The notes under the pieces: generated by a model
Told to the model about the DNA's origin: nothing
What the model saw: only the letters and a program-made list of their open reading frames with translations
Databases searched by the model: none
Position numbers and translations under genes: made by a program
Shown here: piece after piece, positions 26,780 through 40,844 of the stretch
Layout: each line of letters opens with the position of its first letter
Numbering within the stretch: position 1 is the stretch's first letter
From: a virus
DNA length: 64,000 nucleotides
Virus record (IMG/VR): IMGVR_UViG_3300038466_000014
Strand: one strand, 5' to 3'

Positions 26780-27094
26780 TGGTGGGCGAGGGAGGAATCG
26801 AACCCCCAACATTTCGGTTCCCGTTTGTGTAGCTTTCGCTACTCCGTGGACTATTTCTTCACCCTCGATACACTGTAGGGTGTCGGGCGCTCTTGCCGGT
26901 CATTAAGGGGACTATACCCCTCCGGTAGTCTCTAAACGTTCCATAGGTGTACCTATGGCTTCGCTCGGAGTTGTCATGGGTAAAATTAATTTACCTTTAG
27001 ATTTCTCCGAATTCACCCAATCCACTCTATGTATTACTACATAGAGGCACAGTTGTCTATGAGCCGAAGGTTCTAACCGTTGAACTACTCGCCC
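26780..27094 (-). tRNA. tRNA(CAU), Ile2 or Met, split by a group I intron (exons 27059-27094 and 26780-26819)
   Basis: Spliced anticodon arm TTCGG-CT-CAT/AA-CCGAA; ends in CCA. Confidence 0.9.
26820..27058 (-). mobile_element. Group I intron (IC3, Azoarcus tRNA-Ile-like), ORF-less, 239 nt
   Basis: P1 guide GTG pairs exon CAU; GAATTCGGAGAAA, TAGAGACTA and ATAGTCCA core; ends GCGAAAGCTACACAAACGGG with terminal G. Confidence 0.9.
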
Positions 27095-27803: not shown

Positions 27804-27881
27804 ACGGTTCCTTTGCGTATAAAATGTTTTGGTGCCCGGAGCGGGATTTGAACCCGCATGATCTGTCGATCGGGGGATTTT

Positions 27882-28554
27882 CTTACCACTTCGGCTTTCG
27901 CCGCCCATCTTACGATGGTTCGTGGTCTGGACTTTCTCTTCACCCGCAGCATAAGCTGTTAGGGTGCGCCGTGTAAAGTCTCTACACTCTGTTCGTTTCG
28001 AACATAGCACGGGATTACCATAGAGGTTAAGGTTTCCCCGTTTTAGCGGCGTCCACTTCAAGAGTTTCTTCTTGAAGGCCCAGTTTTAAAGTAGTGTATG
28101 TCGGGTTTATTGGTGTAATTTCTATCACCAGCCCGCCGTGTTGAATCATGGCCCCATATTTCCCAGAACAACGTTTGCTACAGAATATGCCGGTTTTTCC
28201 TCTTTTTCGATTACCAATCGCCGTAGAAAGTTTTTTACCGTCCAATGTAAAAATATATCCGCACCACGGGCACACAAACTGTTTTTTCTGTAGCCTTACA
28301 ACATCCAGGATAGAGTGTTCTACCCTATCAACAATTTGGATATTTTCTGGGGAGTTATCTGTAAAATCTCCATTTATGTGGTCAACCGTTTCGTTTTCCA
28401 TTAAATATCTTCCAATTCTTATTTCAGTTAAATACTTTGGATAAGAAACAGATGCCCTTTTTCCGTTCGGGTAAATTATAATAATAATTTATCTTTTATC
28501 CGTTCTTTGATATGGACCATAAATTCTACAATTTTCGTACACCACTTTTCACCT
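27882..28554 (-). mobile_element. Group I intron (trnL-UAA type) with HNH ORF in the P1 loop
   Basis: GGGCCTTCAAGAAGAAACTCTTGAAGTGGA...GGGGAAACCTTAA...GGTAATCCCGTGC...GTAGAGACT...AAGTCCA core; terminal G. Confidence 0.88.
28027..28542 (-). pseudogene. Intron-encoded HNH endonuclease with in-frame TAA
   Basis: GTG start; YENCRIYGPYQRTDKR*IIII...SYPKYL...ETVDHINGDFTDN; stop at 28489-28491. Confidence 0.75.
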
Positions 28555-28602
28555 AAGTCCCCGCCGTCTACCAATTCCGGCATCCGGGCAAGTATTTTCT
28601 AA

Positions 28603-28677: not shown

Positions 28678-28685
28678 TAAAGAAA

Positions 28686-28810
28686 TAGAGGACTGCTCCG
28701 TTAAACACTTTTTTTCTTTTGCTCTACCGTTGAGCTACACCCCGAAGTCGGGGTGAATGGAGTCGAACCATTACCCAAAGTTCCACGTTGAATGTTTAAC
28801 AGCACCTCTA
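28686..28810 (-). ncRNA. YrlA-like Y RNA 1 (permuted tRNA-like domain)
   Basis: Terminal stem TAGAGGTGC...GCAGTCCTCTA. The T-arm (GGTTCGACTCC) precedes the D-arm (TAGCTCAACGGTAGAGC) and the acceptor-like stem is closed by a loop. Confidence 0.8.
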
Positions 28811-28825
28811 TTAAACTGAAATGAA

Positions 28826-28898: not shown

Positions 28899-28907
28899 GG
28901 ATTCAAT

Positions 28908-28976
28908 ATGCGGGGACTAATGTTATGACGTATAGCGTCGTGAAAGGTCGTTGAACGTCACAACGACACCCCGCAT
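28908..28976 (-). ncRNA. Short Y-RNA-like element 2
   Basis: ATGCGGGGTGTCGTTGTGACGTTCAACG...ACGTCATAACATTAGTCCCCGCAT. Confidence 0.65.
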
Positions 28977-29029
28977 TAAACGTAAAAATTGGCGCGCCCG
29001 GCAGGAATCGAACCTGCGGCCTACGGATT

Positions 29030-29890
29030 CAGGTTTGTGTTACTTTCGTAACTTCCTGGACTTTCTCTTCACCGTGCGAAATATATCCTCCGTTTAGGTG
29101 GTGGCCGTCATTCATGTAGAAAGGGTTGAAGAACTATGCGCTTGGGTATTTCGATCTTATACTGCATTGATGGAATTATATATTCACCAAATAGATCTAC
29201 AAAACTTCGGGCTTGTTTGGTGCCACAACGTACACTAAACCTGCCTTTATTTCTTTTTTTGGTGAATGTTATTCCCCAAACTTCCGAAAAATAAGCAATG
29301 ATGATATCTACCTCTATTTCGGAGCAGTAAGTCGAAATAGACAAATCATAGGCATGAATTTGTCCATTACGTTTTTTGGCGCTAAGTCCTCCATCATCCA
29401 TATACCATATAGCAATGGCTTTCGGAGTTAACTTATCCAGAATTTTCCTGGATATAGTTTTTTTACCATCTTTATATAACCATTTATGCACGATTCTGAT
29501 ATAAGGAATACTTTTTTCGAATCCACAAGCTGGTAATAATCCGCTGAAAAATGGGTTCACCTTCGTCAGTTTACCTGTAATTTTCTCAATGAGACTGGCT
29601 TTATACTGTATGTATTCCTTTTGTTTTTCAGAATGTCGAATACACAAATGGGTATTTTTGTTGCGTCTAATGTGCCCATCTCCAATTGCCATTGCCATGA
29701 GTATACTCTTGTCATCCCTTGTCATTTTTCACACTCCTGTGTGATTTTTTGTTTTTCTACACGACAGTCTCTACACCTTCCTTATTTCTAAGGCTTGGCT
29801 CGGGATTACCACCGGCATTACCCGCTGAGGCTTCCCCGAATTTGACCACTTACACTCATAGGATTTCTCCTATGAGGCCCGTTTTTAAAC
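29030..29890 (-). mobile_element. Group I intron (IC3) carrying a LAGLIDADG ORF
   Basis: CAAATTCGGGGAAGCC, GGTAATCCCGAGCC, GTAGAGACT and AAAGTCCAGG...ACACAAACCTG core. Confidence 0.9.
29108..29725 (-). CDS. LAGLIDADG homing endonuclease (two-motif, I-SceI-like)
   Basis: LMAMAIGDGHI and IAIWYMDDGGL motifs; lies inside the intron. Confidence 0.88.
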   Translation of the reverse strand: MTRDDKSILMAMAIGDGHIRRNKNTHLCIRHSEKQKEYIQYKASLIEKITGKLTKVNPFFSGLLPACGFEKSIPYIRIVHKWLYKDGKKTISRKILDKLTPKAIAIWYMDDGGLSAKKRNGQIHAYDLSISTYCSEIEVDIIIAYFSEVWGITFTKKRNKGRFSVRCGTKQARSFVDLFGEYIIPSMQYKIEIPKRIVLQPFLHE

Positions 29891-30017
29891 AGAAGTCCGT
29901 CTCTCTTTCCAACTGAGATACGGGCGCAGTATATTATCTATTCGAACCGAAGACAAATTATAAAACACCTACGTAATCAGTTCGAACAATTCTTTATACA
30001 AATAAAGGAAATACACC

Positions 30018-30521: not shown

Positions 30522-30656
30522 ATTGTCAAGGACTTATTCCGGAACATTTTTTTACCGCTTTGCCGATTAAGCTACACCTCCATACGGAAGTGACGGGCCT
30601 CGAACCCGCAACAGTCGATTAAATGTCGTTGAATGTTCCAGGTTTACCTCGACAAT
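30522..30656 (-). ncRNA. YrlA-like Y RNA 3 (permuted tRNA-like domain)
   Basis: Terminal stem ATTGTCGAGGT...AGTCCTTGACAAT; GCGGGTTCGAGGCCCGT T-arm before the TAGCTTAATCGGCAAAGC D-arm. Confidence 0.78.
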
Positions 30657-30748: not shown

Positions 30749-30760
30749 ACAAAAGAAGAA

Positions 30761-30830
30761 ATGCAGGGACTAATGCTATGACGTATTTTAGTTACCAATT
30801 AACGTTGAACGTCACAACGACACCCCGCAT
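30761..30830 (-). ncRNA. Short Y-RNA-like element 4
   Basis: Both stem arms nearly identical to element 2. Confidence 0.65.
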
Positions 30831-30929
30831 TATTTTAACAACGAAAAAATCAATCTTTGACCATTTGAGAAATATGTCATAAAATTCTTATAACATATTC
30901 CTCTTAATATTCAATATATACAATAAATC

Positions 30930-32453
30930 TTAATTTCTGTTTTGACGAATGGTTTCCATACATCTGATAACATCTATCACACTGTCATTCCATCCAAAAA
31001 TTTGAGTTACATTATATCTTTTAGCATCCTCATTGGAAATGGGACGGTGCGGATATGGATCAACTCGAATCATGTAAGCTCGGGCATTTGGATAAGCGGA
31101 ATGATATCGTTTCCACTCATTAGTAAATCCTTCGCCGAATTCCTCATTGTCTGTTATCAAAATAAATATATCTGTTTCGATTTTATTCTGGAGAAGGTAT
31201 CTTACAGGAAGCTCCATATAGGTTCCACCGCCGTTTGACGCTCTAATCTTTTCGATGTGTGTAAACACGGAATCTGTTTTTGGTACTGTGTATTTATGTA
31301 CCTCGGTATCCCATGGAACAACCATCGAATTCTGTAATCCTTTATATAGAAATCCTGTAAACATTCCGGCAATAAGAGATGGATATATTAAAGATTTTCC
31401 GTTCTTAATACCAGTAGTCATAGATCCAGAAACATCCGGAGCAATAACCACTTTTTTATCTTTGAACACTTCCCAATCAGCAATAGTTACATATTGGTCT
31501 AACACTTCGCGAATATGACCGGAAACATCTTTATCAAAACTTTTCTCGTTTAAATTTTCAAGCAGTGTAAACAACCGGAACGGGAGAACTTTTGCCCGTT
31601 TAAGATTTTCAGCGGTAATTTTCTTCCTCATAGTGTCTTTATCCAGCGCGTCCTCTCTGATCAATTTATTCATATATTTGATGTATGCCATTACGCCCAT
31701 CTGATTACCCAACTCTTTCCAAATCGCCGAATTGAGGTCGGGCATACCTGTAAATGAAATTGGATCAAGTCTATGTTCTTTAATCAGGTTAACAGCGTTT
31801 TTCGTTTTCTTATTTTGAATCTCAATTTTAGCTTGTTCAAAAGCATTTAACATCGGATATTTTTCAAGGGATTCTCCGAACTTCGGAGATGTACGTCCAT
31901 GATATTTCAAAATATAATCATAAATACAGTCTTCCGTTTTAAATCTTGCAAGTCTTACCATATTCCCAATCTGTTTTGTATATTTTAAAGCATAGAACGG
32001 AGTAACCCGTTCTTTTGCCCATCGTTCCATTGCTGATTTTATACCTCTTCCAAATCCACGATTATTCGCTCTGACAAGCGAAATAAAATCTTCCATATCG
32101 TTTCCGGTAATAATAACGGAATTGAAAATCCTTTGAAATTCTCTGATATTATATTTAGAAAGAATAACCAGCCCAAGGATAGGGGCTGTGCGGATGAATC
32201 CTTCAGTCCTTCCTTTTACAATCGCATTCGCCAGTGTATATGGTTCTCTTTGAGCAACCTCATTTATAAATCCGACAAATTCATTAATCTGATCTTTTCT
32301 TGACATATAAAATGTTGGATTCATTGTTCCGGTCATCATCAATTGTTCGAGTCTGTTAACATCATTGGGGATGTATGATTTACCCCCTTCGAAATTAACT
32401 GTTTCGGTTTTCTCTGTGGTCACTCGTTTTACAGTAGCCGCGATTTTTCTCAT
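30930..32453 (-). CDS. TROVE-domain Ro60/Rsr RNA-binding protein
   Basis: NFEGGKSY, RGFGRG, VLPFRLF and vWA MIDAS APDVSGSM...LITDNE. Confidence 0.92.
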   Translation of the reverse strand: MRKIAATVKRVTTEKTETVNFEGGKSYIPNDVNRLEQLMMTGTMNPTFYMSRKDQINEFVGFINEVAQREPYTLANAIVKGRTEGFIRTAPILGLVILSKYNIREFQRIFNSVIITGNDMEDFISLVRANNRGFGRGIKSAMERWAKERVTPFYALKYTKQIGNMVRLARFKTEDCIYDYILKYHGRTSPKFGESLEKYPMLNAFEQAKIEIQNKKTKNAVNLIKEHRLDPISFTGMPDLNSAIWKELGNQMGVMAYIKYMNKLIREDALDKDTMRKKITAENLKRAKVLPFRLFTLLENLNEKSFDKDVSGHIREVLDQYVTIADWEVFKDKKVVIAPDVSGSMTTGIKNGKSLIYPSLIAGMFTGFLYKGLQNSMVVPWDTEVHKYTVPKTDSVFTHIEKIRASNGGGTYMELPVRYLLQNKIETDIFILITDNEEFGEGFTNEWKRYHSAYPNARAYMIRVDPYPHRPISNEDAKRYNVTQIFGWNDSVIDVIRCMETIRQNRN

Positions 32454-32586: not shown

Positions 32587-32664
32587 TTAGAGGACTATAT
32601 CAAAGGCATCAAGACCGATTATTTTTGAAATTAATTGTTGTTGAATGCCTTTGGCCACCTCTAA
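32587..32664 (-). ncRNA. Short Y-RNA-like element 6
   Basis: TTAGAGGTGGCCAAAGGCATTCAAC...ATGCCTTTGATATAGTCCTCTAA. Confidence 0.6.
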
Positions 32665-32674
32665 TTCAAAAATA

Positions 32675-32757
32675 TTTACGAGGACTACAATGAAGCATTT
32701 TGTTCACGTAGGACATTTTTGGGATGTTTCGTTGAATGCCTCAAAACACCTCGTAAA
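32675..32757 (-). ncRNA. Short Y-RNA-like element 7
   Basis: TTTACGAGGTGTTTTGAGGCATTCAACG...ATGCTTCATTGTAGTCCTCGTAAA. Confidence 0.6.
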
Positions 32758-32771
32758 GTCATAAGTCTATA

Positions 32772-40123: not shown

Positions 40124-40198
40124 TGGCAGGAGGGGGAGGATTCGAACCTCCAAATACCGGCTCCAAAGACCGGTGTCTTACCATTTGACGACCCCCCT
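40124..40198 (-). tRNA. tRNA-Gln(UUG)
   Basis: CCGGT-CT-TTG-GA-GCCGG; CCA. Confidence 0.92.
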
Positions 40199-40319
40199 GT
40201 AGGGGAATCGAACCCCTTAAAATACGACCCCAGATTTATATTCAAATTCATCATATACGTGACCTTTCAATAAACCCTACAGAATTATATAAAGATAGTT
40301 TACCTTCGTATATCTTGGT

Positions 40320-40630: not shown

Positions 40631-40844
40631 TGGTGTGGGCGGCGGGATTCGAACCCGCGAAAACACCATCCGCCGACTTGTCGAGCGGATCGGCATATCC
40701 TTGGAAATGGGCTTCCCTACATGACGTATATCATGACCCGGTGCCATTCGCAACCTTGTGGATAGCCGTCTTTGTGGTGTTTGGCATTTTCATACCTCTC
40801 CCCCTCATTTTGGGGTGCCTTTACCTTTCCTTGGCCACGCCCAC
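40631..40844 (-). ncRNA. 214-nt tRNA-scaffolded structured RNA (tRNA/tmRNA-like, identity unknown)
   Basis: Perfect acceptor GTGGGCG/CGCCCAC plus ACCA, D-arm GCC...GGC and T-arm GCGGG-TTCGAAT-CCCGC, enclosing about 150 nt of nested helices. Confidence 0.75.

Follow-up and report, generated by a model that had tools for sequence, protein, structure and literature searches.

Clusters of transfer RNA (tRNA) genes in phage genomes are usually seen as serving codon supply or as providing spares against anticodon nucleases. An RNA that carries every signal for tRNA maturation and yet does not decode suggests that the tRNA shape has a second, so far unstudied, use; the only such RNAs on record that we know of are the species 1 and species 2 RNAs of phage T4, whose function has to our knowledge been unknown for fifty years. 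Two further systems build on the tRNA shape: the YrlA RNA of Mycobacterium smegmatis, which is cleaved by RNase P and then gains CCA (PMC4201824), and the tRNA scaffold for recombinant RNA, following the approach of Ponchon and Dardel as used in PMC3753655. Here we analyse an RNA, given the working name X, that is encoded at positions 40631-40844 of a stretch of 64,000 nt (the window) from the virus record IMGVR_UViG_3300038466_000014. We conclude, with a probability of about 0.68, that X is a non-decoding tRNA-like RNA gene and not an intron-bearing tRNA, a transfer-messenger RNA (tmRNA) or a Y RNA.

X has a complete class II (long-arm) tRNA shape, in which the anticodon loop is crippled and to which a 122-nt insert of several helices is joined (Table 1). 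A preliminary description of this DNA had proposed a tRNA mimic with acceptor, D and T arms and a CCA end, and all of these can be read directly in the sequence. The acceptor strands, GUGGGCG and CGCCCAC, pair perfectly over 7 bp. The D arm, earlier called canonical, is present but is of the class II type: GCC(A)/(A)GGC forms 3 bp with an A13.A22 mismatch and carries A14, G18G19 and A21. The conserved tertiary nucleotides are kept throughout (U8, A14, G15-C48, G18G19, A21, U54U55C56, A58 and G53-C61), and short linkers separate the parts: A26 after the D arm, GAGA between the anticodon-like and variable-arm-like hairpins, and UC before the T arm. The encoded CCA is found also in 8 of the 12 tRNAs that ARAGORN calls in the window at default settings.

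The departure from a decoding tRNA lies in the anticodon region. The stem consists of four C-G pairs and an A.G mismatch and the loop reads AAAAUGA, which gives neither the canonical 5-bp stem nor a U33 loop with a purine at position 37 that suits the codon. U33 is near-universal in tRNA anticodon loops, and tRNAs that read codons starting with A carry A37 modified to t6A. Because X has A33 in place of U33, together with G37, we judge it to be non-decoding; codon reading is almost certainly excluded. The anticodon and variable region had been described as replaced by hairpins and a folded domain. Those elements are there, but the two arm-like hairpins are retained, and the domain (nt 63-184) is inserted 3' of them rather than in their stead.

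The tRNA core is not a chance assembly of motifs. Our scan for a T arm, a perfectly paired 7-bp acceptor and a D arm recovers X along with the ordinary tRNAs of the window, and finds zero matches in 100 dinucleotide shuffles of the same DNA. The ARAGORN and Rfam searches that had been suggested as a check leave X unassigned: it fits no family in Rfam 15 at the gathering score, default ARAGORN is silent, and only the -i option recovers it. In-silico removal of nt 63-184 leaves 92 nt that ARAGORN, at default settings, accepts as a class II cloverleaf. A copy of an upstream motif of its own, which had also been ascribed to X, does not hold up, as TTTWRAGTAATRR-type motifs occur six times in the window against 4.7 expected, not above chance.

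The minimum-free-energy (MFE) fold of X reaches -86.2 kcal/mol (z = -4.06), with one of 200 shuffles equally stable. It contains CCCC/GGGG, GGUAU-GAAA-AUGCC, AAACACCA/UGGUGUUU, CGGCUAUCC/GGAUA-U-GCCG, CAUGA/UCAUG and UCCGC/GCGGA, so that every helix listed in the preliminary description is recovered. Folded alone, the region between the D and T arms (nt 29-186) has a z score of -3.66, and none of 200 shuffles does as well. The insert is thus strongly structured according to these predictions, with a 9-bp helix that has a bulged U and bears three hairpins, plus a 21-nt bulged hairpin.

What the insert resembles is another matter. Against Rfam it gives nothing at E up to 10; similar sequence is absent from the rest of the window, from about 1 Mb of fetched loci and from GenBank phages; the window holds no paralogue or antisense target of it; and for the small open reading frames (ORFs) that overlap X no family was found, so that a coding role for them was rejected. 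Two candidate likenesses were examined and rejected. The Ro60-binding motif GNCGAA is matched by UGCGAAUG, which in X is merely a hairpin loop and was judged a coincidence. A P9-like kinship of GGUAU-GAAA-AUGCC with the group I introns resident in this phage was also considered, and local alignment yields the T arm only.

The tRNA body probably derives from a resident class II tRNA gene of the Leu or Ser type, to judge from sequence resemblance. Over the 17 positions of the T arm, X agrees at 16 with the tRNA-Leu(UAA) encoded by the phage itself and at 15 with the resident tRNA-Ser. This tRNA-Ser and T4 tRNA-Leu, whose D arm reads GGUAAAGGC, offer the nearest matches to the D region, and a variable arm capped by GAAA occurs also in the phage's tRNA-Leu(UAG).

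The preliminary description considered X a new class of RNA. The same build, a tRNA top half with a non-decoding insert, proves to be common in phages, with the T4 species 1 RNA as an old precedent. We searched IMG/VR with the pattern GGTARANGC-N{60,90}-GGTTCRANTCC, whose spacing shuts out normal and tandem tRNAs. More than 117 IMG/VR loci were found among the matches listed, and at least 56 of them encode RNAs of 108-138 nt with a perfect 7-bp acceptor stem and no anticodon. These RNAs are tRNA-Leu-like, and ARAGORN calls none of the 56 as a tRNA. Most share AGUCAGG-UG-GCGGAAU(U)GGUAGACGC ... ACAGGUUCGAAUCCUGU-CCUGACU-A; where the acceptor varies the change is compensated, and the inserts are unalignable. 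Rfam has no dedicated family for the set, some members being matched by RF00005 at 35-40 bits. Of the 47 members that could be placed in an alignment, 14 have a tRNA on the same strand within 500 nt.

Two observations on this set stand on their own. Across the loci numbered L040-L155 the body is near-invariant (AGUCAGG acceptor stem, GCGGAAUUGGUAGACGC D arm), and many members lie alone in contigs that have no other tRNA gene. The acceptor stem is invariant across unrelated IMG/VR contigs.

A covariance model built from the alignment of 47 (hereafter R1) matches X at full length, model positions 1-120 aligning over 40634-40844 with 26.1 bits (E 1.6e-4). It matches the 3' 92 nt of the T4 species 1 RNA, again over its full length, with 21.3 bits (L001:2910-3001, minus strand), and by this similarity the T4 RNA may include a tRNA-like body of the same sort. 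In X, the acceptor, D and T stems are all unlike those of the IMG/VR chassis, with its AGUCAGG acceptor, GCGGAAU(U)GGUAGACGC D arm and ACAGG T stem, and we regard X as a separate variant of the build, which possibly arose independently. In the open-access literature searched we found no description of phage tRNA bodies with such inserts; the matches concerned Y RNAs, tmRNA, the tRNA-Other of B. cereus, allo-tRNAs, a 2026 preprint on three bacterial tRNA-mimic families and a catalogue of structured phage RNAs. In sum, X stands as a real and unusual RNA gene, a variant of a recurring and apparently undescribed phage theme.

The signals needed for maturation are intact in X: the 7-bp acceptor, A73, the encoded CCA, and an elbow with U8-A14, G15-C48, G18G19 and the UUCGAAU T loop. 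The best reading of the sequence is that X would be a stable RNA matured like a tRNA and active through its insert, a function that we infer because neither an orthologue nor covariation was found. In this model X would be co-transcribed with the neighbouring tRNA genes and ORF94, an adjoining reading frame. RNase P would cut at G1 and the 3' end would be trimmed back to CCA, after which the tRNA top half would shield the ends and confer tRNA-like stability. With its AAAAUGA loop on a 4-bp stem and a four-helix domain of 122 nt between variable arm and T arm, the RNA would not read codons. The insert would be the working part, most likely as a binding surface for a phage or host protein, and the setting for such a partner would be the RNA conflict that the neighbourhood serves, with its tRNAs, the ligases Rnl1 and Rnl2, Ro60 and Y RNAs. 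Of the three identities offered in the preliminary description, a scaffold matured by RNase P and RNase Z fits best. A nuclease decoy seems a weaker candidate, as the AAAAUGA loop with A33 is unlike a normal anticodon loop.

By analogy with E. coli, leucylation of X by leucyl-tRNA synthetase (LeuRS) is possible. The E. coli enzyme requires A73 and the tertiary core of the D and T arms but can do without the anticodon and variable arms, since tRNA-Leu variants that lack them are still charged; the rules for E. coli tRNA-Leu comprise A73, U8-A14, G18G19, A20a and an A15-U48 Levitt pair (PMC9976931). X has A73, U8-A14, G18G19 and an A after U20, but its 15-48 pair is G-C. A more specific and decidedly speculative proposal, which we regard as doubtful, casts X as a natural aptamer on a tRNA scaffold. 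RNase P would mature it, a synthetase, most plausibly LeuRS, would charge it, and the insert would dock a specific host defence or RNA-repair protein, so that the charged or uncharged tRNA look-alike would serve the phage as a decoy against defence or donate its aminoacyl group outside translation. If true, this would be a class of function not yet described for phage RNAs.

A number of results weigh against our interpretation. X is a single instance, which adds breadth to the theme rather than proof of it. By blastn, no orthologue was found in GenBank phages, and exact and degenerate X patterns gave only chance hits in coding DNA across IMG/VR, JGI metagenomes and GTDB genomes. As X is a singleton without an orthologue, the insert has no evidence from covariation. 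R1 is not specific for X, since it scores genuine class II tRNAs equally (28.4 bits for the tRNA-Leu(UAG) of this phage, 26.5 for its tRNA-Ser), and with a hidden Markov model of the 5' chassis of the IMG/VR set X scores 1.2 bits, whereas the phage's tRNA-Leu(UAA) reaches 13.1. The link between X and the IMG/VR set is therefore one of architecture rather than of demonstrated homology. As to charging, E. coli LeuRS prefers an A15-U48 geometry, from which X deviates by G15-C48 and by a D-loop alpha region of 5 nt rather than 3.

The alternative that survives best, although we consider it unlikely, is that X is a decayed class II tRNA gene, a functionless pseudogene that gained foreign or junk DNA and lost its anticodon. 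Such an origin would fit a singleton whose orthologue is missing from the syntenic position in the closest relative, the degenerate anticodon loop, and the 8-bp terminal inverted repeat of the insert, which could mark an insertion event. Decay, however, is not expected to spare precisely the maturation signals, and here all seven acceptor pairs, the T arm, the D arm, the nucleotides of the tertiary pairs and CCA are intact, while the insert region folds far better than its shuffled versions.

Very unlikely, in our estimate, is a working decoder, that is, a class II shaped tRNA for Ile with the anticodon AAU (or IAU) and a giant extra arm, comparable to allo-tRNAs. The idea draws on ARAGORN, which at default settings reads the 92-nt remainder of X as tRNA-Ile(aat), on the lack of a tRNA-Ile(GAU) in the window, and on the established tolerance of ribosomes for the long variable arms of class II tRNAs. 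The window, though, lacks many other tRNA species too, and the loop speaks against decoding, with A33 for the near-universal U33 and G37 at the position where readers of ANN codons have A37 (t6A). No more than 4 pairs and the A.G mismatch make up the anticodon stem, and a four-helix domain of 122 nt beside the elbow would probably clash on the ribosome. We know of no tRNA-Ile that belongs to class II.

We give little credence to the view that X is an intron-containing precursor from which self-splicing, or an endonuclease together with Rnl1 and Rnl2, removes the insert to leave an ordinary tRNA. The phage does have three tRNA genes with group I introns and two RNA ligases, and ARAGORN -i proposes a tRNA-Arg(ccg) with an intron of 122 nt. 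That model, however, places the intron at 28/29 and has a mismatched anticodon stem and no U33, and when all single excisions from the anticodon region were enumerated, none gave a U33 loop on a 5-bp stem. A group I core would not fit into so short an insert, and X has no match to the group I model RF00028 at E up to 10, in agreement with the preliminary description, which had seen no group I core motifs; resident introns score 72.3 and 34.9 bits with that model. Similarity between X and the three resident introns is limited to the T arm, and no bulge-helix-bulge was seen by eye at the ends of the insert.

Equally improbable is a role as partner or substrate of Ro60, as a Y RNA variant in which the tRNA module lies at the ends rather than inside. 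It is suggested by the presence of Ro60 and a YrlA-like RNA about 8-10 kb away and by the comparable topology of M. smegmatis YrlA (PMC4201824). X is not adjacent to Ro60, however; it scores only 15.8 bits with RF02553 against a threshold of 69, by way of the T arm; and UUCAAC and AGUCC, common to the Y-like RNAs of the window, are absent from it. The absence of these motifs likewise ruled out a permuted YrlA as the identity of X.

A reduced tmRNA variant that tags stalled proteins is barely credible: X has a tRNA-like end with a larger domain, the internal frame AKHHKDGYPQGCEWHRVMIYVM is present as earlier stated (22 codons opening at GCC after AAAAU, with a stop at its end), RF00023 is the best if weak Rfam hit at 27.8 bits and relatives of the phage encode tmRNA, but that score lies below the gathering threshold of 47, ARAGORN -m at default settings reports 0 genes and neither pseudoknot nor resume context, the missing G3-U70 pair noted before is indeed G3-C70 and denies X alanine identity, a full D stem and the anticodon-like hairpin sit where SmpB would have to bind, the frame is buried in helices of 8-9 bp in the MFE fold, its tag end is unlike known degradation tags, and the genuine tmRNA of a relative looks wholly different at 105.7 bits. 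The non-Ala tmRNA variant put forward in the preliminary description is accordingly set aside.

The genomic setting is rich in possible partners: Ro60, several Y RNAs, two RNA ligases and three intron-bearing tRNAs. The window is part of a 180-kb contig from a large, uncultured and novel phage that has a multisubunit RNA polymerase and for which neither GenBank phages nor IMG/VR yielded a close relative. In this region of tRNA and RNA-repair genes, tRNA-Gln (40124-40198), the first gene in a run of tRNA-Gln, tRNA-Asn and tRNA-Ser, is encoded 433 nt downstream of X on the same strand. X also shares its strand with all twelve ordinary tRNAs that default ARAGORN calls in the window. This strand further carries the three tRNA genes interrupted by group I introns (CAU, Leu UAA and Arg UCU, the last with a LAGLIDADG gene), the RNA ligases Rnl1 and Rnl2, Ro60, the YrlA-like Y RNA and further Y-like elements. 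Immediately around X, a radical SAM gene, whose relatives are all at most 35% identical, and a YqeY-like gene lie upstream, and ORF94, a 94-aa orphan for which no relatives were found, begins 26 nt past the CCA.

The further Y-like elements lie at about 28680-28825, 28899-29000, 30749-30860 and 32600-32770 and have ...UUCAACG... and AGUCC in common; two Y-like elements contain a permuted tRNA-like module made of a T arm, a closed acceptor hairpin and a D arm. Directly upstream of tRNA-Gln, at 40199-40222 on the minus strand, is a T-arm-like element, AGGGGUUCGAUUCCCCU, with an unconvincing acceptor and D arm. It may be a tRNA remnant, and the fold of this region is no better than shuffles (z = -0.63).

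A search with the RNA polymerase beta subunit led to a clade of metagenomic phages at 48-64% identity. The closest relative is GCA_029935835.1 (64% identical in this subunit), of which 42 kb were walked (loci L002, L007 and L031). In this synteny walk X is absent next to the YqeY gene. The relative has scattered tRNAs, a genuine tmRNA and three non-decoding tRNA-like RNAs, none of which is orthologous to X. Elsewhere, YqeY homologues stand beside RtcB or have no adjoining RNA genes. In another metagenomic phage (L032:3812-5393, plus strand), the gene for the nearest homologue of the YqeY-like protein (37% identity) immediately follows an RtcB RNA ligase gene, and this arrangement hints that small phage YqeY proteins belong to RNA repair. 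A relative with an RNA polymerase beta subunit 55% identical encodes a canonical suppressor tRNA with the anticodon UUA, which reads UAA (L005:18949-19024, plus strand).

Table 1 Positions of X and its parts, of other RNA genes and Ro60 in the window, and of RNA genes in the closest relative, GCA_029935835.1
Feature	Position	Strand	Remarks
X, whole tRNA-shaped RNA, 214 nt	40631..40844	(-)	nt 1 = 5' G at 40844, nt 214 = 3' A at 40631
X, acceptor stem 5' strand GUGGGCG, nt 1-7	40838..40844	(-)	7/7 Watson-Crick with 40635-40641
X, D arm, class II type, GCC-AAGGAAAGGUAAA-GGC, nt 10-28	40817..40835	(-)	preceded by U8 G9
X, anticodon-arm-like hairpin CCCC-AAAAUGA-GGGG, nt 30-44	40801..40815	(-)	A33, G37; read as AAU by ARAGORN after the deletion
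X, variable-arm-like hairpin GGUAU-GAAA-AUGCC, nt 49-62	40783..40796	(-)	from MFE fold and ARAGORN on the deleted form
X, insert, 122 nt, nt 63-184	40661..40782	(-)	closed by 8-bp helix AAACACCA/UGGUGUUU
X, T arm GCGGG-UUCGAAU-CCCGC, nt 187-203	40642..40658	(-)	preceded by U C(48)
X, acceptor 3' strand CGCCCAC, discriminator A73 and encoded CCA, nt 204-214	40631..40641	(-)	read in sequence
tRNA gene, group I intron of 239 nt after CAU	26780-27094	(-)	
tRNA-Leu UAA, group I intron of 673 nt after U34	27830-28589	(-)	ORFs inside intron
tRNA-Arg, group I intron of 861 nt after UCU	28990-29927	(-)	LAGLIDADG endonuclease at 29108-29725
YrlA-like Y RNA	30523-30652	(-)	RF02553 37 bits, E 5e-7; just downstream of Ro60 and tRNA-Pro
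Ro60	30930-32453		with the YrlA-like RNA, about 8-10 kb from X
Relative, tmRNA	L031:15320-15751 (JAPOGW010000002.1)	(+)	RF00023 105.7 bits; overlooked by ARAGORN -m
Relative, tRNA-like RNA, 112 nt	L031:15757-15868		right after tmRNA; 8-9-bp acceptor, loop AAUUACA (A33), long arm
Relative, tRNA-like RNA, 87 nt	L031:11306-11392	(+)	extended hairpin of about 29 nt for anticodon arm; encoded ACCA
Relative, Ser-like RNA	L031:12059-12151	(+)	6-bp 'anticodon' stem capped by GGGA tetraloop

Comparison with known systems shows what X shares with each and where it departs. With class II tRNAs (RF00005, and the phage's Leu(UAA), Leu(UAG) and Ser(UGA)) it shares the 7-bp acceptor, U8, the 3-bp D stem with its 13.22 mismatch, G18G19, the variable arm capped by GAAA, the T arm, A73 and the encoded CCA; it differs in the AAAAUGA loop with A33 and G37, in the 4-bp stem and in the 122-nt insert before the T arm. 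Like tmRNA (RF00023), X joins a tRNA-like acceptor, T arm and CCA to an internal domain of far greater size, and its maturation is presumably tRNA-like; but tmRNA is marked by G3-U70, a missing D stem and anticodon-like hairpin, pseudoknots and a tag frame, and X departs from it on each of these. YrlA-type Y RNAs (RF02553; PMC4201824) are, like X, non-coding RNAs with a tRNA-like module, and one is encoded by the same phage. Their module is circularly permuted and closed by a loop, and their ends form the Ro60-binding stem, whereas X has open acceptor ends.

The engineered tRNA scaffold (PMC3753655) works on the principle proposed for X: a foreign structured RNA is placed within a tRNA body, so that it is processed and stabilised by the cell like a tRNA. 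The scaffold is man-made and its insert replaces the anticodon stem-loop; X is natural and carries its insert at the junction of variable arm and T arm. The T4 species 1 RNA (rnaC) is likewise a stable RNA with a consensus T arm, encoded in a phage tRNA cluster beside species 2 (rnaD). Unlike X, it is 139 nt long, has a tRNA-like domain at its 3' end only and no encoded CCA, and shows no sequence similarity to X. The RNAs of the IMG/VR set resemble X in that a class II type top half with A73 carries, between its D and T arms, a structured insert that does not decode, and they often lie beside tRNA genes. Whereas these RNAs measure 108-138 nt and have an insert in place of the anticodon arm, X, at 214 nt, retains anticodon-like and variable-arm-like hairpins next to its unique insert and ranks among the largest and most elaborate examples of the build.

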